Shown one piece after another: positions 28 to 27,712 of a DNA stretch of 29,344 nucleotides. The notes below the pieces were generated by a model that saw only the letters and a program-made list of their open reading frames with translations, did no database searches and was not told the origin of the DNA. This DNA comes from a virus: the IMG/VR virus record IMGVR_UViG_3300003323_001383, one strand, 5' to 3'. Each line of letters starts with the position of its first letter. Position 1 is the first letter of the stretch. Made by a program: the position numbers and the translations under genes.

Positions 28-405
28 TCACGACTCCATGACCGCGAGGAGGAGCTCCAGCCTCCTCATTTTCTCGGACGAGAGGGCGTCCAGTATGGCC
101 TCCTCCTCGATGAACGGCTCGTGCTGGGAGTCCGAGCGGAGGCGGGAAGAGACGATCTGGGCCGCCTTCTCGTCCGAGACGCGCTCGCTGACGAGGTCGT
201 AGCCGTCGTTCCCGTTCGGGGTCGGCGTCCTCCTCCACCAGGAGCCGCCCTTCCAGTCGACGCAGCTCTCGGCCGACAGGAGGCGGACGCCGAGCCTCTC
301 GGCCTCCAGGGTGAGCCACTCCCCGTCGTCGGACGGGTCGACGTGGAGCTCTATCGGGTCCGTCGAGGAGATGCCGTCCACGACGTCTATGGAGAGGATT
401 CTCAC
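28..405 (-). CDS. hypothetical protein, 125 aa, C-terminus LLLAVMES
   Basis: Complete ORF; strong G/C third-position bias in this frame; GTG start at 405 directly abuts antisense of tRNA-Glu; no domain recognised. Confidence 0.7.
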   Translation of the reverse strand: MRILSIDVVDGISSTDPIELHVDPSDDGEWLTLEAERLGVRLLSAESCVDWKGGSWWRRTPTPNGNDGYDLVSERVSDEKAAQIVSSRLRSDSQHEPFIEEEAILDALSSEKMRRLELLLAVMES

Positions 406-477
406 GGCCCGTTCTTCTAGCGGCTAGGAAGACGCCCTTTCAAGGCGTTAACGCGGGTTCGATTCCCGCACGGGTCA
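406..477 (+). tRNA. tRNA-Glu(UUC)
   Basis: Acceptor GGCCCGT/ACGGGTC (one G:U), anticodon stem ACGCC/GGCGT with loop CTTTCAA, T-arm GCGGG-TTCGATT-CCCGC; no encoded CCA. Confidence 0.85.
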
Positions 478-2927: not shown

Positions 2928-3497
2928 TTAGAGGACGAAGTCCTCCGCCAGGGCCTCCCGCAGGCGCGAGATGGTCCGGGCGTGTATCTGCGAGATGCGG
3001 GGCTCGGACACGCCGAGCTCGGCCGCTATGGAGCGATAGTCCACGCCGTGGACGTGGTGGGAGACGAAGATGTGGCGCTCGCGCCACGGGAGGAGGTCGA
3101 CGAGTTCCCAGACCTTCGACAGGGCGAGGGCCGCCGCGGTCCTTGCCTCGACGTCGTCGCCCGACATTGCGTCCTCGAGCGACCTGTGCCCGGAGTCGAC
3201 GAGGACGTGGACCGCCCTGTCCGGGTCGCCCTTGGCCCTCATGCGGTGGTGCCTCGGCATCCAGTCCTTCGTCCGCAGGTCGTCCTTTATGGCGCCGCGG
3301 ATCCTTATCCTCGCGTAGGCCCCGAAGTTCTCGCAGTCGGGGTGGAGGCGCGCCGCGTCCCAGAGGCCGGACATCGCGGCCGCGTGGAGGTCGTCGTACA
3401 TGATGTGCGCCGGAAGGCGCCGCTTGAACCCGAGCGCGATGCTGCGGGCGAGGTGTGCGTGGTCCTTCATGAGGATCGAGACGCGATACTCGTTCAC
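2928..3497 (-). CDS. sigma-70 family RNA polymerase sigma factor (FliA/group 3-4-like), 189 aa
   Basis: Region 2 motif YARIRIRGAIKDDLR and region 4.2 helix-turn-helix IAAELGVSEPRISQIHARTISRLRE; GTG start. Confidence 0.85.
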   Translation of the reverse strand: MNEYRVSILMKDHAHLARSIALGFKRRLPAHIMYDDLHAAAMSGLWDAARLHPDCENFGAYARIRIRGAIKDDLRTKDWMPRHHRMRAKGDPDRAVHVLVDSGHRSLEDAMSGDDVEARTAAALALSKVWELVDLLPWRERHIFVSHHVHGVDYRSIAAELGVSEPRISQIHARTISRLREALAEDFVL

Positions 3498-3587
3498 CCC
3501 TTAAGGATAGCATTCGTCAACCCTTACGATAAGGTATTCTCCAAAAGCTTGTGGGCGGCCGTAGCACAGCCGTTGCCGCCCTGACAC

Positions 3588-4705: not shown

Positions 4706-6730
4706 ATGAACAACGAGAGCATGGGGGCGGCCGAGACCATCGTCCAGTCCCTTCTGTCCCACGCGGACCACATGTACCACAACCGTCCCGGCGTCGTCGT
4801 CGCGGACGCCCGCTTCAAGGTCGGGGTCCGTTGGGAGTACGTGACGCACCGCGAGAAGTGCCGGACCCACGAGGACGACCCGGTGAGGCCGGAGAAGGAC
4901 GCCGAGGGCAAGAAGACCGGCCGCCTGCTCTGCTCCAAGTGCCAGTCTGACGTCCGGGGGAACGGCCACAGGATCGTCTACCGGAAGGTCAAGGTCGGCA
5001 AGAAGGAGGAGGAGCAGAAGGTGGGCTACCTCGGCCCCGACGGGAAGGACGTCCTCGGCCCGAACGGGCAGAAGGTCGCCGAGTACCGCGAGGCCGGCGT
5101 CTTCCCCGAGATCGCCGTCTGGATGTACGAGCAGGTCGCGAAGGTCTGGGAGCTCGACAACGAGTTCGCCGCCCGCTGGGCGTCGCACGCGTTCGGCGAG
5201 GACCACAAGGACCGGGCCGTGATCATGGCGGCCTTCATGCTCGTCCAGTCCCGCAAGGGGGACCCCGTCCGCGAGGACGGCAAGGTCCTGTTCCACGACG
5301 ACGACTTCCGGGACGTCGGCGAGGCCATGGTCCTGCACCTGAAGGACAAGAGGAAGAAGGACGAGCGCGAGATCTCCCCGCGCATGCTCCTGCGCATTCA
5401 CGAGGTCCTGTCGCTCGACGGGATCGCGGCGGTCAACCGGCGCCTCGGCTTCGGGGTCTCCGCCCGCAGGCCGCCCTTGGGCCGCTGGGCGAAGGCCGTC
5501 GAGAAGTGGCTCCTCTACCGGGAGGAGAACCCGAAGATGCTGGAGGGCCTGGTCAAGTCCGGGCAGAAGTCGACCGTCGTCGAGCTCTGCAAGCGCGTCG
5601 GGTACAAGCCCGCCTCGCCCAGGTTCTTCGAGATCCTCGGCGTCCGGCAGAAGCAGGCGCCGGACGGCAGGCGCACGGTCGCCATCGGCCTCGACATCAG
5701 GTCCGGCGGCTCGTGGGAGGGCATGAGCGAGGAGCAGATCTGCGAGGCGATCGTCAGGGACAAGGTCGGCTACAAGCGGGTGGCCGGCATGGTCCCCAGG
5801 TCCGTCGGCGTCACCCGCGCCGTCATGGCCGCGACGATCGAGGCCGGGGGCGTCTCCGACAAGGAGATGATCATCCTCATGCCGACCCTCGAGGAGCTCG
5901 GGCTCCTGGACGTCCCCTCCGTCAAGGAGAGGATCGAGCGCGCCGTCAAGGGCGCGGACGACATGCGCGCCGCGAACGTCGCGGCCCGGATGCGCTCCCA
6001 GGAGGCGAAGGAGAAGCTCCAGGAGGCCTCGGACAACGCCCTGAAGAAGGCGGTCGAGGAGGTCATGAAGGACATGCGCGCGTACATCCTAGTCGACAAG
6101 TCGGGCTCCATGGAGGGCGCGATCGAGGCGGCGAAGGGATGCGTGACGAAGTTCCTCCAGGGCTTTCCGCCCGAGCGGGTCCACGTGGCGTACTTCGACG
6201 CCGTCGGCCGCGAGGTCAGGATCCCGCACCCGTCCGCGGCCGGGGTCGCCAAGGCCTTCTCCGGCATCACGGCCGGAGGCGGGACCAACTACGGCCAGGG
6301 CGTCCTCGCCCTGAGGGACCACGTCCCGAAGGACGAGGAGGACGTCGTCATGATCTTCATCGGCGACGAGGGCCACGGGATCGGCCGGCTCATCAGGCTC
6401 GGCGAGGGCGACCACCCGTCGTTCGCCGCCGACGTCCAGAGGTCCGGCCTGCGGCCGATGGCGTTCGGGCTCATCCCGATCGTCTCGAAGAACCCGCAGT
6501 TCCCGCGCGGCAACTCCGTCCGGAAGACGGCCGCCGAGCTCGGGATCCCCTGCTTCGAGATCGGCGAGGAGACCTTCGCCGACCCCTACGCCATCCCGAG
6601 GACGATCAGGAACATCATCGCGGCGACCCCGGTCACCGCGAGGGCGACGGCCGCCCCGGTCCGGCGGCAGACCCTGGTCGAGGTCATCATGAAGACCGAG
6701 CTCCTCCGGAAGCCCGCTTGGGCAGCCTGA
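4706..6730 (+). CDS. von Willebrand factor A (vWA) domain protein with long helical N-terminal region, possibly TROVE/Ro60-like, 674 aa
   Basis: SD AAGGAG 8 nt upstream. MIDAS DxSxS in ILVDKSGSMEG, then ITAGGGTNYG and VVMIFIGDEGH (vWA). N-terminal GRWAKAVEKWL...KP and C-terminal FADPYAIPRTIRNI recall Ro60 by eye only. Confidence 0.8.
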   Translation: MNNESMGAAETIVQSLLSHADHMYHNRPGVVVADARFKVGVRWEYVTHREKCRTHEDDPVRPEKDAEGKKTGRLLCSKCQSDVRGNGHRIVYRKVKVGKKEEEQKVGYLGPDGKDVLGPNGQKVAEYREAGVFPEIAVWMYEQVAKVWELDNEFAARWASHAFGEDHKDRAVIMAAFMLVQSRKGDPVREDGKVLFHDDDFRDVGEAMVLHLKDKRKKDEREISPRMLLRIHEVLSLDGIAAVNRRLGFGVSARRPPLGRWAKAVEKWLLYREENPKMLEGLVKSGQKSTVVELCKRVGYKPASPRFFEILGVRQKQAPDGRRTVAIGLDIRSGGSWEGMSEEQICEAIVRDKVGYKRVAGMVPRSVGVTRAVMAATIEAGGVSDKEMIILMPTLEELGLLDVPSVKERIERAVKGADDMRAANVAARMRSQEAKEKLQEASDNALKKAVEEVMKDMRAYILVDKSGSMEGAIEAAKGCVTKFLQGFPPERVHVAYFDAVGREVRIPHPSAAGVAKAFSGITAGGGTNYGQGVLALRDHVPKDEEDVVMIFIGDEGHGIGRLIRLGEGDHPSFAADVQRSGLRPMAFGLIPIVSKNPQFPRGNSVRKTAAELGIPCFEIGEETFADPYAIPRTIRNIIAATPVTARATAAPVRRQTLVEVIMKTELLRKPAWAA

Positions 6731-6738
6731 GGCGCACG

Positions 6739-7095
6739 ATGTCGAGGAGGATGGGGCGGGAGCCCCTCCCCTCCCCGGTGTCGCACCGGTCCTACCTCGC
6801 CAGCCCGGCGTTCGGGCTGGCAAGGTCGGGCCGCAGCATCTTCTCGGTCCCGAAGAGGGGGCCGCTCTTCTACGCCGACTTCGAGGCGACGGAGCTCCGG
6901 ATGATGGCCTCCCTGGGCCTCTTCAGGTTCCCGTGCCCCGCCTGCGGAGACCCGCTCCTGGCGAGCGCCCGCTCCGGACGGAGGTCGATGGGGTACCCGC
7001 ACGACCTTGCCGGAAGCCAGGACGACATCCTCGTCCAGCACGCCCTGAAGAAGGGGGACCCCGAGCACGGCGTCCTCCTCGTCATGACGGCGTAG
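6739..7095 (+). CDS. hypothetical protein, 118 aa, C-terminus VLLVMTA
   Basis: GC3-biased frame starting at ATG 6739; contains FYADFEATELRMMA (resembles family-A polymerase motif A) and CPACG. Confidence 0.6.
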   Translation: MSRRMGREPLPSPVSHRSYLASPAFGLARSGRSIFSVPKRGPLFYADFEATELRMMASLGLFRFPCPACGDPLLASARSGRRSMGYPHDLAGSQDDILVQHALKKGDPEHGVLLVMTA

Positions 7096-7661: not shown

Positions 7662-8648
7662 ATGTCCTGGCGGGACCTGCTCCAGAAGGAGGACGAGAGC
7701 CTCGTCCTCCCGTGGACCGGAGGGAGGACCGTCCTCTCGCCGGGCCCCGCGTACCAGATGCAGGGTCCGAAGCCCAGGGAGCACGGGTGGAAGGCTTTCC
7801 AGATAAAGGGAAGGAACGCCTTCCACGTCGGCCCGTCGGACCCGGAGGTCTCCGTCCTCGGAAGGCGCGTCACCGGGTACCTCGTCGGGGACCGCGTGGT
7901 CCCCGACGGGACACGGGTGGCCTCCGGCTACGATGGGATAATCTACTCCTCGGAGGCGGTCCACCTCCTCGAGCCCGGGATCGCCAGGTTCGCCAGGGTG
8001 TCCGCCGGCCGCGTCGCCGACGGGGCGCCCCTGGTCTTCGTCTCGGAGGAGATGCCGCTCGGGCCCGAGCAGGACGTCCTCGCCGCGTTCCAGGACCGGG
8101 CCCCGAACCTGGACGGGATCCGCGACGTCGAGCCAGCGCTCTACGCGGCCTTCGTCCTGGAGGTCGGCCAGAGGGCGTCGGCGGAGAAGGCCAGGGCCGA
8201 GCTCGAGGCGCAGCGCGCCCTGGAGGCCGCCCAGGCGGCCGAGAGGGAGCGGATCGGGAGGCTCGTGGAGCAGCTCTCGGACGCGCGCGGGAGGCGCGAG
8301 ATGGCGGCCTACGACTTCGCCCAGGCCGCGTCGGCGGCGCTGACCCTGGCGGAGGCTGAGTACCTGGACCACCGGGCGTCCGCCAACCGAGGGGAGATGG
8401 TCGTTACCTTCCGCCTCGAGGGGCGGAGGTTCGAGTGCGTGTGCGACGCCAGGACACTCCGGATCGTCGACTCGGGCATCTGCCTCGTCGACCACAGGAC
8501 CGGGGTCCGCGGCGACGACCGTTTCACCCTCGAGTCGCTCCCCGGCGTCATCCGCCTGGCGATGAGGACCGGCAGGCTTCACGTCTTCCGCCGGGTCGAC
8601 GACGACTACGGCGAGCGGGAGCACGATGACGACGACTACGACGACTAG
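7662..8648 (+). CDS. hypothetical protein, 328 aa, acidic C-terminal tail
   Basis: GC3-biased ORF starting 3 nt after the HU stop; central Ala/Glu/Arg coiled-coil-like segment; tail DDDYGEREHDDDDYDD. Confidence 0.7.
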   Translation: MSWRDLLQKEDESLVLPWTGGRTVLSPGPAYQMQGPKPREHGWKAFQIKGRNAFHVGPSDPEVSVLGRRVTGYLVGDRVVPDGTRVASGYDGIIYSSEAVHLLEPGIARFARVSAGRVADGAPLVFVSEEMPLGPEQDVLAAFQDRAPNLDGIRDVEPALYAAFVLEVGQRASAEKARAELEAQRALEAAQAAERERIGRLVEQLSDARGRREMAAYDFAQAASAALTLAEAEYLDHRASANRGEMVVTFRLEGRRFECVCDARTLRIVDSGICLVDHRTGVRGDDRFTLESLPGVIRLAMRTGRLHVFRRVDDDYGEREHDDDDYDD

Positions 8649-8649
8649 G

Positions 8650-9021
8650 ATGTCGAAGAAGACCTACAACGAGCGCCTGAGGGTCCTCATGGAGGTGACG
8701 GCCGCGAGGGCCGGGACGGCGGGTTTCAGCGTCGTGGTCCCGCACGCGAGCCCGAAGGAGGTCTGGCGGCTCGACGGGAAGGACATCCGGGACGTCAAGG
8801 CGAGCCTCTCCGGCATGGCCGAGCTCCAGTCCGACCAGGAGTGCGACGAGTGCCTCGAGCTCCTTCCGAGAGGGCACACGGTCGCCGGGAAGGTCATCCT
8901 CTGGGAGAGGGACGGGGGCATACTCCAGTCCCGGTTCCACTGCACCTGCATCCCCTGCTTCGTCCAGGACCGCGGGGGCTACCTGTCCTCAGCCGTCGTC
9001 GCGCTGGTCATGGAGACCTGA
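8650..9021 (+). CDS. hypothetical Cys-rich protein, about 123 aa, C-terminus VALVMET
   Basis: ORF frame open from 8626; ATG 8650 chosen (first ATG after upstream stop); CDEC...CTCIPC motifs. Confidence 0.6.
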   Translation: MSKKTYNERLRVLMEVTAARAGTAGFSVVVPHASPKEVWRLDGKDIRDVKASLSGMAELQSDQECDECLELLPRGHTVAGKVILWERDGGILQSRFHCTCIPCFVQDRGGYLSSAVVALVMET

Positions 9022-9045: not shown

Positions 9046-9390
9046 ATGGACAACGACGAGTGCCCGTCGCGGACGACCTACAACGAGCCGATCCGGCACG
9101 TCGGCAGAGCCAGGACGGCGACGAAGCTGGCGATTCTGGCCATCGCGGCCGCGGCCGTCCTGCTCGTGGTCTTCGCGGAGCGACAGCCGAACCCGAGGAA
9201 GGAGCACGACAAGTACGTCTCCGAGCGGCCGGCCTGGAAGGGCCGGGAGTGGAGGGAGACCGAGGCCGTCCTCTTCGAGGACCCGGGCCACCCCCTCACC
9301 TATCACGTCTGCACCTTCCGGGGGTGCGGGCACTACTTCGAGGACAAGACGGGGACCGACATGGCTCCGGGAAACGGGCAGAAGGAATGA
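9046..9390 (+). CDS. single-pass membrane protein, 114 aa
   Basis: Hydrophobic helix KLAILAIAAAAVLLVVFA; stop overlaps next start (ATGA). Confidence 0.65.
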   Translation: MDNDECPSRTTYNEPIRHVGRARTATKLAILAIAAAAVLLVVFAERQPNPRKEHDKYVSERPAWKGREWRETEAVLFEDPGHPLTYHVCTFRGCGHYFEDKTGTDMAPGNGQKE

Positions 9391-9791
9391 GCATCGAGGA
9401 CGCGGCGGTCGTCGGCAAGGACGGGACCGTGGTCTACTGGCACTCCCCGGAGAACAGGTCGTACGGGTTCATCCCCGACTCCAGGAAGCTCTGGGACGTC
9501 ATATGGGAGGGGAGGGCCTCCATCGACGGGATCGCCCACACTCACCCGGGCAGGGGCTACCCGAACCCGTCGAAGACGGACCTGACGACCTTCGAGGCCG
9601 TCGAGAAGGGCATCGGGCGCCGCATCAAGTGGTGGATACTGAGCGCGGACTCCTCGGTCCTCCTCGAGTGGAGCGACGAGTTCTCCGGAGGGTACGACGT
9701 CACCAGCTACATGACCGTGGAGCGAGAGCCGGGGTGGATGGCGGCCCTCAGGGCCCGCTCTTTCCCGGAGCTCCAGGCCGCGCCCGCGTAG
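9387..9791 (+). CDS. JAB/MPN (JAMM) family metallopeptidase, 134 aa
   Basis: GIAHTHPGRGYPNPSKTD fits the JAMM H-x-H-x(7-8)-S-x-x-D zinc motif; ATGA overlap with upstream gene. Confidence 0.7.
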   Translation: MSIEDAAVVGKDGTVVYWHSPENRSYGFIPDSRKLWDVIWEGRASIDGIAHTHPGRGYPNPSKTDLTTFEAVEKGIGRRIKWWILSADSSVLLEWSDEFSGGYDVTSYMTVEREPGWMAALRARSFPELQAAPA

Positions 9792-9799
9792 CGCGGCCC

Positions 9800-10522
9800 A
9801 TGTCGCTGGACTGCATCATATCCGTCACCCCGAAGGCCCGAGGGAGGGCCAGGAAGACCGTGAACGGGCCGGTCTCCCGCTTCATCCGGGACGACGAGGA
9901 CTACTACCAGGCCGTCCTCAAGCACCTCAAGGAGTGCAGGGTGTGCGACCCCGCGGAGGCCCTCCGGGGGTTCCTGAAGAACCGGCGGGCCGAGAAGTTC
10001 GGTGGCAGGGTCTCGGGCCTCCTCCTCAACATGGCGGCCAAGTACGTCAAGAACTTCCGCCACCGCGGCGAGGAGATCGACGCCCTCTACAGGGAATACC
10101 TCGTCGGGCATTTCTCCAGCTTCCACGACCTCGAGGAGGCCAGGGGTCTGACGGTCGAGGAGGTGCGCCGGGCCCACTCGATGTACATGACCCGGCACGA
10201 GCGGGAGGTCCGCCTCGCCCTCGAGTCGGAGGCCGGCCCGAAGGAGAAGAAAAAGCGCGCGGAGCCGCACCCGTTCGACGAGGCGCAGAGCCGCATGGGG
10301 TGGAAGGACGAGGTCTGGCCGAGGGAGGCCCTCGGCCGCATCGTCCCGGTCGATCTCCAGTTTTACGCCTCCCTCTCCGAGGAGGAGGCGGAGGACCTCG
10401 GCCCCTACCCCCTCGCCGTCTGGCTCGTCACCCGCCACAGCTGGGAGACGGCCATCCGGGAGGAGTCGGTCATCGCGGAGTACGCGAGGCTCCAGCTCGC
10501 GCAGAACGTCATGGACTCGTGA
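9800..10522 (+). CDS. hypothetical protein, 240 aa, C-terminus AQNVMDS
   Basis: GC3-biased frame from ATG 9800; sits between the JAB and small Gly-terminated protein genes; no E2 signature recognised. Confidence 0.65.
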   Translation: MSLDCIISVTPKARGRARKTVNGPVSRFIRDDEDYYQAVLKHLKECRVCDPAEALRGFLKNRRAEKFGGRVSGLLLNMAAKYVKNFRHRGEEIDALYREYLVGHFSSFHDLEEARGLTVEEVRRAHSMYMTRHEREVRLALESEAGPKEKKKRAEPHPFDEAQSRMGWKDEVWPREALGRIVPVDLQFYASLSEEEAEDLGPYPLAVWLVTRHSWETAIREESVIAEYARLQLAQNVMDS

Positions 10523-10559
10523 GGGTCCGAGTGTAGCGATAGTGGAAGGAGACACGAAA

Positions 10560-10847
10560 ATGGTAGACATCGTTCAAGTTGGAGGAGGGTTCGTCGGCCC
10601 GAACGAGGCGAAGGTGAACCTTTCCTGGGGAGGGCAGAACTACGACCTCTCCAACCCGGTCCCCCTGGACATCACGGACGCGGACCTCAAGGGCGTCCTA
10701 TCCGAGGTCATCCGCGCGGGCGGCGACGGCATCCCGGCGGACCAGGACGTGGGCCCGATGGCGAACTTCGTCGTCGAGCGGCTCGGCCCGACGGCGAGGC
10801 GCCCGCACAACCTCATCATGGTCCAGCCGAAGACCGAGTTCGGCTGA
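10560..10847 (+). CDS. small protein ending in Gly, 95 aa (candidate ubiquitin-like / sulfur-carrier protein)
   Basis: Perfect SD AAGGAG 8 nt before ATG 10560; C-terminus ..QPKTEFG followed by stop; directly upstream of the E1-like gene. Beta-grasp fold not verifiable by eye. Confidence 0.6.
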   Translation: MVDIVQVGGGFVGPNEAKVNLSWGGQNYDLSNPVPLDITDADLKGVLSEVIRAGGDGIPADQDVGPMANFVVERLGPTARRPHNLIMVQPKTEFG

Positions 10848-10852
10848 GGAGG

Positions 10853-10875
10853 CCGGCCCCGGAGATCCCGGGGCC
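10853..10875 (+). promoter_or_regulatory. intercistronic GC hairpin between the small Gly-terminated protein gene and the E1-like gene
   Basis: CGGCCCCGG-agatc-CCGGGGCCG, 9-bp stem, 6 nt after the stop and 18 nt before the E1 start. Confidence 0.4.
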
Positions 10876-10893
10876 GAGCCCTTAGGGGTCAGG

Positions 10894-11466
10894 ATGAAGA
10901 AGGTCACGATCGTCGGCGCCGGGGCCCTGGGCTCTCACCTCGTCATGCTGCTTCGGAACCACGCCGACATGAAGGTCGTGGACTTCGACCGCATCGAGAC
11001 GAAGAACACGATGTCCCAGCTCCACGGCAAGAGCACGGTCGGGAAGAACAAGGCAAAGTCTCTCCAGCAGACGATGCTCTTCCTGTTCGGCACGAGGCTC
11101 GAGGCGGTCCCGCACCGGCTCGAGCCGTCGAACGTCAAGGAGCTCCTCGAGGGCTCGGACCTCGTGGTCGACTGCGTCGACGACGGGCCGACCCGGAGGG
11201 TCATCCAGGCGTTCTGCGTGGAGAGAGGGATTGCGTGCCTGCACGGGGCGCTCTCGGCCGCCGGGGCAGACTTCGGCCAGGCCCGGTGGACCGAGGAGTT
11301 CACAGCCCACGACCGGACGGAGGGCGCGCCGACCTGCGAGGACGGCGAGCATCTTCCGTACATCGCGAAGGCCTCGGCGCAGCTCGCCATCGCGGCGCAG
11401 GACTTCCTGCGCGACGGCTCCAAGCGCGGGTTCCTCGTGCAGCGGGGCCCGGTCAAGGAGATCTGA
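10894..11466 (+). CDS. ThiF/MoeB/HesA-type E1-like adenylyltransferase (short form), 190 aa
   Basis: N-terminal Rossmann loop VTIVGAGALGSHL, VVDFDRIETKN, DLVVDCVDDGPTRR, all typical of the E1/ThiF adenylation domain; Cys in APTCEDGE. Confidence 0.8.
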   Translation: MKKVTIVGAGALGSHLVMLLRNHADMKVVDFDRIETKNTMSQLHGKSTVGKNKAKSLQQTMLFLFGTRLEAVPHRLEPSNVKELLEGSDLVVDCVDDGPTRRVIQAFCVERGIACLHGALSAAGADFGQARWTEEFTAHDRTEGAPTCEDGEHLPYIAKASAQLAIAAQDFLRDGSKRGFLVQRGPVKEI

Positions 11467-14601: not shown

Positions 14602-14617
14602 CCGGTAGCGTGCAGTC

Positions 14618-14953
14618 ATGGGAGCAGGATTCTCGGAGCGAGACCTTGGCCGGGTCCCGGGCCTTCCGGAGGTCCGCCTCCTCCTCGTGGGCCGCCCGCT
14701 GAAGGACGGGACCCGAGAGATGACGCTGACCATGAGGAACGTCCAGTCCAGGGACGTGTGCAAGGCCGTGGAAGGGAGGATAGTCATGGACCCCATTCCG
14801 GGGACGGACGGCCTGAGCGACGCCGAGAGGCTGGCGCTCTCCGTCCTCCCGCACTCGGCCGCCCTGAGGAGCGACTTCCCGTCCCTCCTCCGCGACCCGT
14901 TCTGGCAGGCCGCCATCGACGTCCTGCTCGTCGAGCACGTCATGGAGTCGTAG
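14618..14953 (+). CDS. hypothetical protein, 111 aa, C-terminus VEHVMES
   Basis: ATG-initiated GC3-biased ORF; no domain recognised. Confidence 0.65.
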   Translation: MGAGFSERDLGRVPGLPEVRLLLVGRPLKDGTREMTLTMRNVQSRDVCKAVEGRIVMDPIPGTDGLSDAERLALSVLPHSAALRSDFPSLLRDPFWQAAIDVLLVEHVMES

Positions 14954-15878: not shown

Positions 15879-16277
15879 ATGGACGCAGACTCCGAGCTCC
15901 AGAGGCACCACAAGGCATCGAGGGACGCCCTCGCGGTCGTCCGGGCCGTCCACGCGGCCCTCGACCGCCCGCTGTCCGGCGGGCCGTCGCGGGAGTCCAC
16001 GCAGGCCATCCTGGACGCCGCGCGGAGGGCCGTCCCGCGCCAGGCGGTCCCGCACCCGTGCACGGTCCGGTGCTGGCGCGTCGGCGCCCCGTCGGGCCTC
16101 GACGAGCGAGGGAGGTGCCTGGAGTGCGGGTCCCCCGGCGTCAGGAGCGACAAGGAGGAGTACGAGAGCCTCGTCTCCCCGGAGGTCGTGGCGAGGCTCT
16201 GCGAGCAGCTCATGCTCTTTCGGGACGCCGTGGAGCACCCGGCCGTCCTCGCCGCGGCGGCGGTCGGCGCCCTCTAG
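15879..16277 (+). CDS. hypothetical protein, 132 aa
   Basis: ORF 15819-16277 trimmed to ATG 15879, 3 nt after tRNA-Cys; CxxC (CLEC); stop overlaps the stop of the convergent gene (CTAG). Confidence 0.6.
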   Translation: MDADSELQRHHKASRDALAVVRAVHAALDRPLSGGPSRESTQAILDAARRAVPRQAVPHPCTVRCWRVGAPSGLDERGRCLECGSPGVRSDKEEYESLVSPEVVARLCEQLMLFRDAVEHPAVLAAAAVGAL

Positions 16278-16930
16278 CGGGAGACGGCGTACGCGGCCCG
16301 GAGGCGCTTGTAGTCGTCGTTTGGCGCGCCGGCGGAGGTCGAGGAGTCGGCGACGGAGCAGGCCTCCGGGAACGGGACGCCCTTGTTCACGAGATAGCTC
16401 GTGTGAACGGCCCCGGTCCGGTCGGCCCCGAGGGTGCAGTGGACGAACACGGCCTTAGGGAGGCCGGACTGGTCCGCCATCACGGACGCCACCGTCTCGA
16501 CGAGGCCGGAGAGGTCCCAGCCCGGGGACGTCAGGTAGACCTTCGGGTCCTCGCCCTCGGCGAACCCCTCGATCGGCCACCAGTAGAACGTGGCGGGGAC
16601 GGACTTCCCCTCCGTCCTGAGGATGCACTGCTCCCCGTTCCTCGGGTCCCATCCGGGCTGGAGGTAGGGCGGCCAGTAGGAGGGAGAGGGGGCGCCGATG
16701 CCGAAGGCCGACATCTCCGGCCCGAGCATGTAGGCCTCCCCGACGCAGTCGATGAGGCTGAAGACGACCACCTCCCGCCCGGCGAGAGGGACGCCCGAGG
16801 CCGACTCGAGCTCGTCGAGGGCGAAGGAGTAAGGGTCCCCGACGAGAGGCATGCAGCTCCGGACCAGGGCGTTCCCGCCGACCGTGTCCACGTGCTTCAC
16901 GCGGTCGGGAAAGAAGACTTGTCTCGTCAT
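16274..16930 (-). CDS. Cys-based (dual-specificity/tyrosine) protein phosphatase family protein, about 218 aa
   Basis: Signature VHCTLGADRTG = HCx5R(T/S) P-loop; ATG 16930 preferred over the TTG at 16945 given by the ORF track. Confidence 0.75.
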   Translation of the reverse strand: MTRQVFFPDRVKHVDTVGGNALVRSCMPLVGDPYSFALDELESASGVPLAGREVVVFSLIDCVGEAYMLGPEMSAFGIGAPSPSYWPPYLQPGWDPRNGEQCILRTEGKSVPATFYWWPIEGFAEGEDPKVYLTSPGWDLSGLVETVASVMADQSGLPKAVFVHCTLGADRTGAVHTSYLVNKGVPFPEACSVADSSTSAGAPNDDYKRLRAAYAVSR

Positions 16931-16949
16931 GACGCCATCAGACAATAAA

Positions 16950-17025
16950 GCCCCCGTAGCCTAGCGGATCCAGGCGCTCGTTTTCTAAACGAGGTCACAC
17001 GCTGGTTCGAGTCCAGCCGGGGGCA
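16950..17025 (+). tRNA. tRNA-Arg(UCU)
   Basis: Acceptor GCCCCCG/CGGGGGC, anticodon stem CTCGT/ACGAG loop TTTCTAA, T-arm GCTGG-TTCGAGT-CCAGC, A73 followed by CCA. Confidence 0.85.
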
Positions 17026-21840: not shown

Positions 21841-22073
21841 TCCGGGTCGAACTCGAGATAGGAGTAGACCGCCACGGCCCCGTCGTCGTGCTTGACGAAG
21901 TACAGGTCGCCCCCGGCGCCGCCGACCGCATCGAGGACCTGGCCGGAGGCCCCGTTCTTCCGGGCGGCGACGAGGTCGGCCCCGCCGATCATGCCCATCG
22001 TGGCGTTCTTCTCGAAGCAGTCCACGGTCCGCACGCGGACGCCCCTCTTCAAGATTTGGCTCGGCTGCTCCAT
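21837..22073 (-). CDS. hypothetical protein, 78 aa
   Basis: ATG-initiated, GC3-biased, first gene of a minus-strand run 22073 to 19090. Confidence 0.6.
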   Translation of the reverse strand: MEQPSQILKRGVRVRTVDCFEKNATMGMIGGADLVAARKNGASGQVLDAVGGAGGDLYFVKHDDGAVAVYSYLEFDPE

Positions 22074-22149
22074 GCCGAGGAATACAACGACGTTAGCCCG
22101 ACTTTCGCGGAGGGAAAGTCAAGACAGTAACATAGACAGGCAGGAACCG

Positions 22150-22668
22150 ATGAGAACCCTTCTTCTGACCCCGTGGCTCTTCCCGCACAAGGTCCTCTCC
22201 TGGGAGGACGCCGTGACCCTCGTCTACCGGGGGAAGGTCGACGTCCTGGTCGAGTACGGCCAGGAGGTCTCCTCCCCGTCCGTGACGTGGAAGGTCCCGG
22301 CGGTGCTGCGCCTGCGCAAGCCCATCGGGCACATGCGGAGGGGCGTGAAGTTCTCCCGACTGAACGTCTTCACCCGGGACAAGTTCCGGTGCCAGTACTG
22401 CGGGGAGAAGTTCTGCTTCGACGACCTGACCTACGACCACGTCATCCCGGCCCGCCTCGGCGGCGAGAAGGACTGGGAGAACATCGTGACGGCCTGCAGC
22501 CCCTGCAACAACAGGAAGGGCGGCAGGACCTGCGACCAGGCCAGGATGTGGCCGCTGAACTGGCCGAAGAAGCCAGAGTCCGTCCCGGCGACCGGCCCCC
22601 TGATCAAGAGGGACGGTATCCCCGAGGAGTGGCAGGGCTTCTGCGACGGCCTCATACACATCACGTGA
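22150..22668 (+). CDS. HNH endonuclease, 172 aa
   Basis: CQYCGEKF...LTYDHVIPARLGGEKDWENIVTACSPCNNRKG = canonical HNH/McrA-type motif. Confidence 0.85.
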   Translation: MRTLLLTPWLFPHKVLSWEDAVTLVYRGKVDVLVEYGQEVSSPSVTWKVPAVLRLRKPIGHMRRGVKFSRLNVFTRDKFRCQYCGEKFCFDDLTYDHVIPARLGGEKDWENIVTACSPCNNRKGGRTCDQARMWPLNWPKKPESVPATGPLIKRDGIPEEWQGFCDGLIHIT

Positions 22669-22689
22669 AACGAGTGTACCCTGAGGGAC

Positions 22690-23214
22690 ATGGGCGCAAC
22701 CGGCTATAACCCCCTTCAACAGATGGTCCCGTCCGGGCCGTCGGGTCCCTTCGGGATCCCTGTCGTCATGAAGGCATTCCCGGAGGAAGGACACGCCGTC
22801 CTGGAGGAGCTCGTCCTGACGGACAGGCTGAAGGTCCTCCTGAAGGCCCGGGCGAGATACCAGGCCGTGGGCTCCCTTCAGTTCATGCCGAGCGCCTCCG
22901 CCGTCCTCGTGGAGAGGAGGGAGGACGGGACGACGAGCGAGAGGGAGATCGCCAGCATGACCATGCCGGAGATCCTGGGCCTTCCCTCCACGTCGCTGAT
23001 GTGGCAGAACATCGTCCTCTACCTGGAGACGGCCCACAAGCTCTCGGTGAAGGAAGACAAAGGCAAGATACGGGACGCCTGCGCGGCGGCCGGGAAGGCG
23101 GCGATGAAGTTCACGGCCACCCTCATGGCGGACGTCGCGATGGGCGTCCTGAACGACGAGGATATGGCCGAGGCCAAGGACTCGGCAGTAGTGTTGCAGG
23201 TCATGGAGACCTGA
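22690..23214 (+). CDS. hypothetical protein, 174 aa, C-terminus VLQVMET
   Basis: ATG-initiated GC3-biased ORF; stop 6 nt before tRNA-Ser(GGA). Confidence 0.65.
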   Translation: MGATGYNPLQQMVPSGPSGPFGIPVVMKAFPEEGHAVLEELVLTDRLKVLLKARARYQAVGSLQFMPSASAVLVERREDGTTSEREIASMTMPEILGLPSTSLMWQNIVLYLETAHKLSVKEDKGKIRDACAAAGKAAMKFTATLMADVAMGVLNDEDMAEAKDSAVVLQVMET

Positions 23215-23308: not shown

Positions 23309-23391
23309 GGAGACACAACCCGATAGGCGACGGGACCGGTTTTGAAAACCGGCGAGCTACGGCCTTGGGAGTTCGACTCTCCCTGTCTCCG
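23309..23391 (+). tRNA. tRNA-Ser(UGA)
   Basis: Acceptor GGAGACA/TGTCTCC, anticodon stem CCGGT/ACCGG loop TTTGAAA, long variable arm, T-arm GGGAG-TTCGACT-CTCCC. Confidence 0.85.
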
Positions 23392-23398
23392 CGTGTAC

Positions 23399-23481
23399 GG
23401 AAGGACCTGCCGAATGGCCGGCAACGGGACTCGAAATCCCGGGGCACCGAAAGGTGGGAGGTTCGATCCCTCGTCCTTCCG
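23399..23481 (+). tRNA. tRNA-Ser(CGA)
   Basis: Acceptor GGAAGGA/TCCTTCC, anticodon stem CGGGA/TCCCG loop CTCGAAA, long variable arm, T-loop TTCGATC. Confidence 0.8.
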
Positions 23482-23495
23482 CAGTAAGATACCCC

Positions 23496-23999
23496 ATGGA
23501 GCCAATCGAGCTCGTGCGCGGCATCCGGGTCGAGAGCGTCCGCGTGGGCGCCCAGACGATGAAGGAGGTCGACCCGAGCAGGCCGGGCTCCCTCCGGCGC
23601 GGATCCACGATCTGCCACTACAACGTCACCGTCGTCTACCCGAACGGGCTGAGGAAGAACCTGTCCACGGCCTGGGACGGACTCGGAAGGAAGGTCGCGA
23701 GGGCCGTGGGGCTCAGGCTCCAGGGGAAGGCCGCGCTGGACGCCGCGCTCGAGGCGAACCGGATCGTGTTCGCGGCCGTGGAGGCCTTCCGCCAGTCGCC
23801 CGCCTGCGCCGACCTGGAGGGGAAGGCCCTGGCGGCCGAGCGCCGGAAGCTGCAGAGGCACGACGAGAGGGAGGCCGAGGCGCAGAGGAGGCGGGACGTC
23901 AACGAGATCAAGCGCTGCCTCCGGAGGACCTTCCTGACGGAGGAGCAGGTCCTGGACCTCTGGAGGGAGGCCCAGGTCTCCGAGGTCATGGAGTCCTGA
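23496..23999 (+). CDS. hypothetical protein, 167 aa, C-terminus VSEVMES
   Basis: ORF trimmed to ATG 23496 (upstream part overlaps tRNA-Ser); Arg/Glu/Ala-rich helical C-terminal half. Confidence 0.65.
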   Translation: MEPIELVRGIRVESVRVGAQTMKEVDPSRPGSLRRGSTICHYNVTVVYPNGLRKNLSTAWDGLGRKVARAVGLRLQGKAALDAALEANRIVFAAVEAFRQSPACADLEGKALAAERRKLQRHDEREAEAQRRRDVNEIKRCLRRTFLTEEQVLDLWREAQVSEVMES

Positions 24000-25536: not shown

Positions 25537-25779
25537 ATGATGGCCGAGTACCACGGAGGGCGCGCTGAGGTGTTCGTCGAGTATCGGGACACCCCGTGGG
25601 AGGGGGTGAGGCCCTTCCGCATCCAGGTCGGGGAGTTCGACGGCCTGGAGATCAGGGCGTTCAACGAGATGCAGGAGAGCCTCAAGGACGTCAGGGAGTC
25701 CGCTGGGGAGGAGGGCTGGAAAAGGTTCATGGAGGAGCTCCGCAAGGCGTTCGTGATGGCCGAGGTCATGGAGTCCTGA
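25537..25779 (+). CDS. hypothetical protein, about 80 aa, C-terminus MAEVMES
   Basis: In-frame tail of ORF 24856-25779; first ATG after the upstream gene's stop is 25537. The earlier part of the ORF is antisense to the HNH gene. Confidence 0.55.
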   Translation: MMAEYHGGRAEVFVEYRDTPWEGVRPFRIQVGEFDGLEIRAFNEMQESLKDVRESAGEEGWKRFMEELRKAFVMAEVMES

Positions 25780-26728: not shown

Positions 26729-27132
26729 AGCGCCGATCCTCCTGCCTCGTCGCCGCGGACGACTTCGGGAACCTCCTCCTCCAGCACAGGACCGACGACG
26801 CCCCGACCTGGCCCGGCTACTGGGGCCTGTTCGGGGGAGGGCGGGAGGAGGGGGAGGACGCCCGGGCCGCCCTGGTCCGGGAGATCAGGGAGGAGATAGG
26901 CCTGGACGCGGCGGCCGCCGTCGAGGTCGGGGTCGTCGAGACCCCGGTCCTCGTCATGGACGCGTTCTTCCTCCGCCTGAGGCCGGAGCACTGCATGCCC
27001 CACGAGCTCGCCAGGGCGCAGACGGAGGGCCAGGGCCTCGGGTTCTTCCCCTTCGAGGCCGTCCGCAGGATGAAGGTCGTCCCGGAGGACGTGGAGGCGA
27101 TGCTCCTGGCCCTCAAGCTTCTCGCCCGATGA
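26725..27132 (+). CDS. Nudix hydrolase, 135 aa
   Basis: Nudix box GGGREEGEDARAALVREIREEIGL (Gx5Ex7REUxEExGU). Confidence 0.85.
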   Translation: MKRRSSCLVAADDFGNLLLQHRTDDAPTWPGYWGLFGGGREEGEDARAALVREIREEIGLDAAAAVEVGVVETPVLVMDAFFLRLRPEHCMPHELARAQTEGQGLGFFPFEAVRRMKVVPEDVEAMLLALKLLAR

Positions 27133-27712
27133 CCTCTATCGCCTGCTCGTAGGACAGGTCGGTGCGGACCGCGACCCTGTCGGCAAGGAGGAGCGCCAGC
27201 GGCAGGGGGAGCGTCATGTTCATGATGCCGCCCTCGGGCAGGGCCTCCCGAATCCTCTCCTGGGCGAGGGAGTAGACGTCGCGCAGGACGACGGGGGAGT
27301 AGGTCCCGGATCCCGTGCTCCACGGGTCGCAGAGGCCCGGGTCCGACGTCACGAAGTGGACGGCGCACGCCGGGGGTCGGACTCTGTGCGCCGAGCACCG
27401 GCCGTCGTCCGACAGGACGGGGCAGCGGGTCCTCATCTTGAACCAGCTCTCGGACGAGCCGGTCCTGGCCAGGTCGGCGACGGACTCGCAGGCCTCCCGG
27501 ACCTTCTTCCAGAGGCCCTGGGAGCGGAGGTCCTGCACGACGACCGTCGCCTCGGCCACGGTGACCTCTATCATACGGTGGCAGCAGGAGCTGCACCCGG
27601 GGGTGCAGCTGTCCCGCGGCGCCATGGTCAGGCGCCTCTTCTCGGAGTCGGAGGCGGCCTGCATGACCGCCACCCTCACGGCGTCGACGGACGTCCCGAG
27701 GGGGACGTCCAA
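27113..27712 (-). CDS. YkgJ-type Cys-cluster (CxxCxxCC) putative Fe-S/zinc protein, up to 199 aa
   Basis: CTPGCSSCCHRM plus CPVLSDDGRCSAH fit the YkgJ/UPF0153 pattern; the ORF-track start is TTG directly after the upstream stop, first ATG at 27664. 3' end overlaps the convergent Nudix gene by 20 nt. Confidence 0.6.
   Translation of the reverse strand: MDVPLGTSVDAVRVAVMQAASDSEKRRLTMAPRDSCTPGCSSCCHRMIEVTVAEATVVVQDLRSQGLWKKVREACESVADLARTGSSESWFKMRTRCPVLSDDGRCSAHRVRPPACAVHFVTSDPGLCDPWSTGSGTYSPVVLRDVYSLAQERIREALPEGGIMNMTLPLPLALLLADRVAVRTDLSYEQAIEVIGREA

Follow-up and report, generated by a model that had tools for sequence, protein, structure and literature searches.

What a virus does with a small set of genes that resembles a ubiquitin-like activation pathway is the question raised by a 29,344-nt stretch of IMG/VR virus record IMGVR_UViG_3300003323_001383 (hereafter the window, meaning the whole stretch that was analyzed). 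An initial annotation of this DNA had drawn attention to four consecutive genes, coding for a JAMM/MPN-type metallopeptidase (JAB), a 240-residue protein (p240), a 95-residue ubiquitin-like protein (Ubl) and a 190-residue E1-like adenylating enzyme (mini-E1), and had read them as a ubiquitin-like conjugation or sulfur-transfer cassette. Comparison with related loci showed that the conserved unit is larger than this reported four-gene block: it comprises five collinear genes, which encode a protein with a vWA domain, a 328-residue protein, the JAB, the Ubl and the mini-E1. The first two are conserved partners that lie upstream of the region annotated initially and were missed there. The cassette is probably self-contained, with the JAB trimming the Ubl, the mini-E1 adenylating it and the Ubl being transferred without a recognizable E2.

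The five genes were defined by their co-occurrence. A profile of the mini-E1 recovered 60 IMG/VR loci, mostly on contigs of 130–620 kb, and an E1-anchored set of 68 sources was analyzed with iterated hidden Markov models (HMMs) on six-frame open reading frames (ORFs), including 6-kb flanks. The Ubl was found in 65 of the 68 sources, the JAB in 63, the 328-residue protein in 59 and the vWA protein in 51; members are missing because the flanks were limited to 6 kb. The JAB, Ubl and E1 belong together, as originally proposed. The genes share strand and order (vWA, 328-residue protein, JAB, Ubl, E1), and the full set is present in ~50 of the 68 loci. In independent sampling with the vWA protein's N-terminal domain as the anchor, 65 of 75 loci hold all five genes in this order, and in the other ten either the contig or locus end cuts the cassette or the E1 lies further downstream; the 328-residue protein was present in all untruncated vWA-anchored loci. 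Clustering of ORFs from 59 loci revealed no further gene in more than half of them, only shadow ORFs and HNH endonucleases. The cassette was observed in about 130 huge-phage loci, wherever there was room for it, and mostly inside tRNA arrays (46 of 53 phage loci, sometimes with tmRNA). Variable genes, tRNAs and homing endonucleases interrupt the cassette members in different phages.

Several details of the phage loci were recorded alongside this analysis. Related loci contain up to 22 tRNAs per 12.5 kb, and four of them (L015, L061, L063 and L064) have a tmRNA with an AN(D/S)...AA-type tag. Between the 328-residue protein gene and the JAB gene, two related huge phages carry an inserted gene whose product contains the C-terminal domain of ribosomal L7/L12 (PF00542, 1.9e-9; L003, 5168-5734, and L004, 4520-4978). 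In L004, a 318-residue ORF (5757-6713) is located between the Ubl and E1 genes, and L003 keeps its C-terminal 73 residues (6492-6713); this difference looks like a mobile insertion, possibly of a homing-endonuclease gene, or like decay inside the cassette. When the region was compared at the DNA level with 50,697 phage records, no near-identical sequence emerged; a protein search of phage records gave Virus Rctr197k, a 595-kb uncultured phage (48% identity), and, apart from it, only unrelated ThiF genes from jumbo phages of Xanthomonas and Erwinia. In the one such locus that was examined, from the cultured jumbo phage PhiXhv-12 of Xanthomonas (L190), the cassette is absent and, among the cassette HMMs, only that of E1 matches. 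An unrelated ThiF-like gene (227 residues; 4932-5615) and, ~2.8 kb upstream, a gene for a 140-residue protein ending in ...KASGG-stop (1739-2161) are found there, and the two may represent a different phage Ubl/E1 pair.

The cassette is also found in bacterial chromosomes. A scan of bacterial assemblies gave ~35 strong E1 matches, mostly in metagenome-assembled genomes labelled Myxococcota, and the compact cassette is carried by an isolate, Paraliomyxa miuraensis SMH-27-4. In many Myxococcota contigs the cassette is compact, spanning ~3.9 kb, and its flanks consist of ordinary cellular genes that vary from locus to locus (YcaO, P450, Ser/Thr kinases, OmpA, SDR, sulfatase, acyl-CoA dehydrogenase, fumarase and histidine kinases). 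Beyond the cassette, almost no chromosomal locus resembles the phage loci; many have few or no tRNAs close by, and the chromosomal copies are not located in defense islands. The occurrence of the compact block at unrelated chromosomal sites indicates that the cassette travels and persists as a unit; the inclusion of the vWA and 328-residue proteins in the Ubl system rests mainly on this point. Since the cassette is common to huge phages and Myxococcota chromosomes, it would act on something that is present in both. In three chromosomal loci (L175, 8627-8699; L171, 8627-8699; L149, 8613-9189), the E1 gene is immediately followed by between one and three tRNA genes; there the cassette may have moved along with adjacent phage tRNA genes or integrated beside a tRNA.

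The mini-E1 matched Pfam ThiF (PF00899) with an E-value of 2.6e-23 and 82.8 bits (the gathering cutoff is 28.1), and this match, the GxGxxG motif and the Mg-binding D96 bear out its description as a short ThiF/MoeB-type adenylating enzyme. Clustering of E1 sequences at 50% identity gave 53 clusters that score below 1e-30, with lengths of mostly 185–200 residues. The family profile aligns to residues 32–211 of Escherichia coli MoeB (E = 4e-22), and the mini-E1 as a whole spans from about MoeB residue 32 to near residue 226; the N-terminal Arg-finger helix, both Zn-binding CxxC motifs and the rhodanese domain are all absent from it. The invariant residues are G8, G10, G13, D30, D32, N38, Q42, K53, D96, W132 and C148. 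In the profile alignment, Cys148 is located opposite C187 in the crossover loop of MoeB, which corresponds to C184 in ThiF and C188 in UbaA, and Ser41 is opposite MoeB R73. The Thr-Cys pair that contains Cys148 (in a TCEDGE context) was invariant in 103 of 103 distinct E1 sequences. The library protein P0030 is a mini-E1 with an insertion of ~55 residues immediately ahead of the invariant cysteine of TC(E), where canonical E1s have their catalytic Cys domain.

The mini-E1 scored far below the cutoff of every named orthologue model (ThiF, MoeB, UbaA, PRTRC_ThiF and cap2). With the NCBIfam ThiF/MoeB equivalogs it reached 67 bits (cutoffs 275–449), which, like the missing Arg-finger helix and CxxC motifs, speaks against a MoeB or ThiF orthologue; with UbaA it reached 54.8 bits (cutoff 450), so it is not a UbaA orthologue; the score with PRTRC_ThiF was 38.7 bits (cutoff 144.75). 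PADLOC models for E1-E2 proteins of the Cap2 type matched at 1e-13, through the adenylation domain only. The E1 profile matched TcdA, an E1-like tRNA-modifying enzyme, with a score as good as that for ThiF.

The Ubl gene is preceded by the Shine–Dalgarno sequence GGAAGGAG 8 nt upstream of its ATG, and its product ends in KTEFG-stop, both in agreement with the initial annotation. An AlphaFold model computed with 13 close homologues as input (predicted local distance difference test score, pLDDT, 81; predicted template modeling score, pTM, 0.71) has the beta-beta-alpha-beta-beta order and a flexible C-terminal tail, so the protein is predicted to adopt the beta-grasp fold that the annotation had asked about. 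The Rctr197k homologue was the sole significant match of this model in BFVD, and searches of Pfam, NCBIfam, PHROGs and PADLOC with the Ubl gave no match. Among 93 distinct homologues, the Ubl domain ends in Gly ([FYL]G) in 92 and in PFG in 78 (consensus RPKTPFG). The single terminal Gly in place of GG, pointed out originally for the window protein, is therefore a family-wide trait. This Gly is followed by 0–61 variable, non-conserved residues. Tailed precursors include the Rctr197k homologue (Rctr197k_224, 166 residues, for which a mature product of 105 residues is expected) and the Ubl of L175, with a 14-residue tail; within the domain, Glu49 is invariant. A conserved terminal Gly with a disposable tail is a hallmark of processed ubiquitin-like proteins. 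It was also described for processed Ubls by Iyer et al. (2006; PMC1779556).

Tails of 14–61 residues that start with Met and/or hold a CxxC motif were observed in L019, L033, L038, L051, L061 and L001 (4037-4537); in one example ...PFG is followed by MGGPCICSRCGNAH. Such precursors are reminiscent of eukaryotic ubiquitin fused to zinc-ribbon ribosomal proteins. Alternatively, the tails could be small downstream ORFs joined through loss of a stop codon.

The JAB scored below the cutoff of its Pfam family, Prok-JAB (E = 0.0019; 18.5 bits, with a cutoff of 25). Despite this, its assignment as a JAMM/MPN metallopeptidase is borne out by the complete E...HxH...SxxD motif, none of whose residues (E4, H51, H53, S62 and D65) varies across 34 diverse homologues. 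In a search of the PDB, the best match of the family profile was Rpn11, with an E-value of only ~0.7; PADLOC JAB models matched weakly, as did PHROG 5556, a 'tail protein' (6e-5). Its predicted role is C-terminal processing of the Ubl or deconjugation, and the distribution of Ubl tails bears on this choice. In cassettes that lack a JAB, the Ubl stops exactly at the Gly in 9 of 9 cases, compared with 20 of 84 distinct Ubls in JAB-containing cassettes (Fisher p = 1e-5, with phylogeny ignored). Because all nine JAB-less cassettes encode a tail-less Ubl, the JAB is most likely a Ubl-maturing peptidase, as judged from these comparisons. The existence of such cassettes also implies that deconjugation, if it occurs, would be dispensable.

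The vWA protein (~625–674 residues) is the most conserved member of the cassette, with a mean identity of ~53%, and has at least 1772 homologues in a library of 5.8 billion proteins. It is composed of an N-terminal domain of ~440 residues and a C-terminal vWA domain, in which the DxSxS motif of the metal-ion-dependent adhesion site (MIDAS) is intact (D464, S466 and S468 in the numbering of a 674-residue member). Pfam VWA_2 matched 34 of 34 family members (best E = 7e-10), and a profile search of the PDB returned only vWA structures. For the N-terminal domain no known family was detected, the profile search returning only close family members. PADLOC gave no match to the vWA protein, and PHROG 850, an 'RNA-binding protein', matched the start of the vWA domain weakly (E = 0.0019). 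Orthology to Ro60/TROVE is not supported: among 34 members (E ≤ 0.1), TROVE is absent from the 25 most frequently matched families, and Ro60 was not found in the PDB search.

The 328-residue protein is built of an N-terminal domain, a central Arg/Glu-rich segment that reads as a putative coiled coil and a C-terminal domain of ~100 residues. The latter contains an invariant [SA]G[IV]CL motif with Cys274, and residues G272, C274, L275 and D285 are invariant. No match was found for this protein in Pfam, PHROGs, PADLOC or PDB sequences. Its 'SGICL' sequence resembles the E2 motif 'GxICLDIL', which gave rise to the idea that the Cys domain could be an E2. Sequence comparison did not bear this out: PDB profile matches were at chance level, and hhalign gave a probability of 0.3% against UBE2D2. 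A distant library protein of 664 residues (P0145), perhaps a natural fusion or else an artefact of gene calling, joins three parts in one frame: an E1 domain, a vWA-like segment and a segment whose GW motif resembles that of the 328-residue family.

For p240 the initial annotation had suggested a novel E2 or an adaptor, and this proposal fails. Only four homologues were present in the 5.8-billion-protein library, and among the 68 related loci the gene occurs in four: the window, its duplicate and two close relatives. In distant relatives the Ubl gene directly follows the JAB gene, without p240. The predicted structure is all-helical (pLDDT 77), and the check for a UBC-like fold that had been called for revealed no similarity to UBC/RWD; this fold and the absence from 64 of 68 loci rule out p240 as an E2. 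The protein has an invariant CxxC (C46, C49), has no match in Pfam, NCBIfam, PHROGs or PADLOC, and ends in VMDS. We conclude that p240 is an unrelated, lineage-specific insertion outside the Ubl system. Termini of the type VM[ED][ST]-stop are found in seven window ORFs with high GC content at third codon positions (GC3): VMES in four, VMET in two and VMDS in one (28-423(-), 8626-9021, 9800-10522, 14609-14953, 22669-23214, 23346-23999 and an ORF ending at 25779). They are encoded by near-identical 12 nt before the stop codon, GTCATGGAG(T/A)CN, and may represent either a tag at the protein C-terminus or a motif at the DNA level. Such termini recur in the close relatives L007 (six) and L006 (three) and in a few other phage loci, in total in 8 of 190 cassette-bearing loci, and the suggested link between conjugation and the VMES termini is accordingly not general.

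In the mechanism that we propose, the JAMM peptidase would first remove the Ubl tail and expose the invariant glycine of ...PFG, as the comparative data suggest. The mini-E1, with ATP, would then adenylate this glycine, to judge from its conserved residues and its homology to MoeB, ThiF and Uba4, and the Ubl would probably be held on Cys148 as a thioester or acyl-persulfide. The third step is speculative: the activated Ubl may be passed to its target without a canonical E2 or E3, either directly or through the Cys of the 328-residue protein, and the vWA/MIDAS protein may be a receptor, a specificity factor or a substrate. In line with this, searches of Pfam, NCBIfam and PADLOC gave no recognizable E2 in the window and the conserved neighborhood, so that the absence noted at the outset holds for the window and for the conserved cassette members. 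Several points weigh against this mechanism. The mini-E1 is nearest by sequence to activators of sulfur carriers (MoeB, Uba4 and ThiF), and sulfur chemistry could be provided by host enzymes. Both Arg residues that contact the ATP phosphates in MoeB are absent, R73 being replaced by Ser and the helix with R14 missing, and for this reason the catalytic competence of the mini-E1 is only presumed. The E2-like idea for the 328-residue protein has no sequence support, the roles given to this protein and to the vWA protein derive from gene co-occurrence, and the synteny is partly inherited, as many of the phage loci come from one broad lineage.

We moderately favor transfer without a canonical E2 over sulfur relay, which we regard as unlikely while granting it a real chance. 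In a sulfur relay, the Ubl would be thiocarboxylated with sulfur from a host desulfurase or rhodanese and would deliver it to tRNA (s2U/s2T), a cofactor or a metabolite, with the JAB acting like Mec+ or QbsD. Such a role is suggested by the best E1 matches, by the position of the phage cassettes within tRNA arrays and by the tRNA gene right after E1 in the three chromosomal loci, and sulfur operons with JAB, Ubl and E1 are well known (PMC1779556). However, neither the window nor the set of conserved neighbors was found to contain a rhodanese, a desulfurase, a PP-loop enzyme of the TtuA/Ncs6 type, ThiG, MoaE or CysM, the E1 has no rhodanese domain, and the vWA and coiled-coil partners have no place in known sulfur relays. 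ThiS and MoaD end in GG, whereas the penultimate residue of the cassette Ubl is a bulky Phe. The Ubl does not have the features of a ThiS/MoaD sulfur carrier: it ends in PFG or EFG, it matches no Pfam or NCBIfam model, and no ThiG, MoaE, CysM or TtuA is encoded nearby. Thiolation of the element's own tRNAs, one of the roles considered originally, is unsupported for want of these sulfur enzymes and also because the cassette occurs outside tRNA arrays in chromosomes, where many copies have no tRNA nearby. The tRNA context also bears on another possibility, namely that the acceptor of the Ubl is not a protein but, for instance, the end of an RNA or tRNA, a small amine or a lipid; precedents are Atg8-phosphatidylethanolamine and MccB-type C-terminal chemistry. 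The FG end is like that of Atg8 and Atg12, the phage cassettes are persistently found in tRNA/tmRNA arrays, and the TcdA score points in the same direction; but the tRNA linkage is gone in most chromosomal copies, and no nucleic-acid-binding domain was detected in any member, so we rate this acceptor chemistry as very unlikely.

A different question is whether all five genes cooperate. The JAB, Ubl and E1 could form a system of their own, with the vWA and 328-residue proteins being syntenic neighbors of separate function: neither of these has a detectable ubiquitin-system domain, gene order in phages is conservative, and variable genes, tRNAs and homing endonucleases often lie between the members. 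We consider this separation rather unlikely, because the five genes enter unrelated chromosomal sites together with nothing else in common with the phage loci, and co-occurrence is essentially complete from either the E1 or the vWA anchor; P0145, if not an artefact of gene calling, joins segments of the same families. A Bil-, Bub- or CBASS-type antiviral or anti-defense system of E1, E2, Ubl and deubiquitinase, in which p240 would be a divergent E2, is highly improbable. The PADLOC matches to Cap2-type E1-E2 models and, weakly, to JAB models speak for it, but the former span the adenylation domain only, no CD-NTase is present, the chromosomal copies are outside defense islands, and p240 as E2 is already contradicted by its distribution and fold. 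Membership in the Bil, Cap2/Cap3 or PRTRC families, raised in the initial annotation, can likewise be set aside: there is no E2 domain, CD-NTase or ParB, the NCBIfam scores are far under the cutoffs, and the JAB, p240 and the Ubl match none of the NCBIfam PRTRC models. Within the favored reading of E2-less transfer, we put forward one specific version tentatively, as an unlikely but real possibility: a new Ubl conjugation machine without E2 or E3, in which the Cys domain of the 328-residue protein would be the Ubl carrier and the MIDAS-vWA protein a ligase scaffold, receptor or substrate, exchanged between Myxococcota and huge phages and deployed from tRNA arrays on host or phage machinery. 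The composition of the cassette recalls eukaryotic assemblies of JAMM, vWA and coiled-coil proteins (BRISC and the proteasome lid).

Neighborhoods of JAB, Ubl and E1 genes have been known since 2006 (Iyer et al., PMC1779556), and transfer independent of E2 has precedents in SAMP/UbaA, TtuB/TtuC and Urm1 (PMC4895103, PMC9574740, PMC7527816). The cassette resembles SAMP/UbaA/HvJAMM1, TtuB/TtuC and Urm1/Uba4 in having a beta-grasp protein with a Gly end, a MoeB-like E1 with a crossover-loop Cys and a JAMM peptidase and in lacking E2 and E3. Unlike in these systems, its E1 has 190 residues without the Zn-binding CxxC or rhodanese parts, its Ubl ends in PFG instead of GG and carries tails of up to 61 residues, and there are two obligatory extra partners (the vWA and Cys-domain proteins). 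With the ThiS-ThiF, MoaD-MoeB, CysO-MoeZ-Mec+ and QbsE-QbsD systems it shares an E1 nearest to MoeB and the linkage of a JAB to a Ubl that extends beyond the Gly (QbsE and CysO-Cys being examples), but neighboring sulfur donor or acceptor enzymes and the GG end are absent and the partners are different. Bil, Bub and type II CBASS all have an E2, separate or fused (PMC11601603, PMC11601596, PMC10097602). They are similar to the cassette in the logic of an E1 with a JAB-type peptidase (Cap2/Cap3 in CBASS), in the activated Ubl or C-terminus and in the phage–host setting; however, they are host defense systems, whereas the cassette is carried by phages and at non-island chromosomal sites and has no detectable E2 and no CD-NTase. 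In lambdoid and T1 phages, the JAB of TAPK also adjoins a Ubl with a conserved terminal Gly, TAPI (PMC1779556), but these genes are part of tail modules without an E1 and the JAB is fused to NlpC/P60, while the cassette has an E1 and no structural genes nearby. A coupling of vWA to JAB, E1 and Ubl genes is known from the vWA-MoxR/FtsH ternary systems (Kaur et al. 2020, PMC7159879), which contain MoxR and FtsH AAA+ ATPases, a Ubl-E2 fusion, a RING E3, EAD adaptors and caspase effectors, none of which was found in the cassette.

The coordinates of the cassette genes and of other features of the window are given in Table 1, in which the other genes follow in order after the hairpin. The window has a GC content of 66.7% and contains 34 tRNA genes, all on the plus strand except one, so its description as a phage-like, tRNA-dense element stands. 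The sole minus-strand call, made by ARAGORN, lies between the vWA gene and tRNA-Ile/tRNA-Met and may be a false positive, given its unusual length of 86 nt. The four consecutive co-oriented genes of the initial annotation were confirmed by their ORF coordinates and codon composition: GC3 is 0.96 for the JAB, 0.96 for p240, 0.87 for the Ubl and 0.94 for the E1, compared with 0.40–0.50 at second codon positions, and since this difference is the signature of real genes in a 66.7% GC genome, all four are coding. Of the GC-rich hairpin described between the Ubl and E1 genes, the stem is present and its significance is weak. The 61-nt segment 10840-10900 folds with -32.8 kcal/mol (z = -2.0; 7 of 200 shuffles were equally stable), and in the hairpin itself there is no T tract and a terminator scan gave no call; the hairpin is real, yet only weakly significant given the 67% GC DNA.

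Table 1. Positions of the cassette genes and other features in the 29,344-nt window
Feature	Coordinates	Strand	Remarks
vWA/MIDAS protein	4706..6730	+	First gene of the five-gene cassette
328-residue Cys-domain protein	7662..8648	+	Second gene of the five-gene cassette
JAMM/MPN+ metallopeptidase (JAB), 134 residues	9387..9791	+	E...HxH...SxxD motif
p240, 240-residue protein, predicted all-helical	9800..10522	+	Lineage-specific insert, outside the conserved system
Ubl, predicted beta-grasp, 95 residues from ATG, end ...QPKTEFG-stop	10560..10847	+	Model and terminal motif
Mini-E1, 190 residues, ThiF/MoeB-type adenylation domain	10894..11466	+	Pfam ThiF
GC-rich hairpin between Ubl and E1 genes	10851..10880	+	Without T tract
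Sigma-70 family factor	2928..3500	-	Has regions 2 and 4; conserved in L006 and L007, where it is also upstream
Dual-specificity phosphatase-like protein	16274..16960	-	Weak match
HNH endonuclease	21868..22668		
CxxCxxCC domain protein	27113..27712	-	
tRNA-Gly(tcc)	6959..7044	-	ARAGORN call

An overview of 224 jumbo phages makes no mention of JAB, ThiF or E1-like proteins (PMC7824862). No description of the cassette was found in the literature that was searched, the coverage of which was incomplete, so that this absence is no proof. To our knowledge, the bacterial systems shown so far to carry out ubiquitin-like conjugation are all antiviral, encoded by the host and equipped with an E2 (type II CBASS, Bil and Bub). 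The cassette is carried by viruses, widespread and strongly conserved, occurring in huge phages of 130–620 kb and in what is likely their host phylum, and it is distinguished by an E1 smaller than any other of its kind, by an FG end like that of Atg8, by precursors that are most likely processed and by two obligatory partners. The presence of the cassette in the cultured P. miuraensis SMH-27-4 makes the question of its function experimentally approachable. If it carries out protein conjugation, Ubl modification independent of E2 would extend to bacteria and phages, with accessory components that are new; should it instead carry sulfur, the cassette would constitute a new phage-borne route of thiolation.

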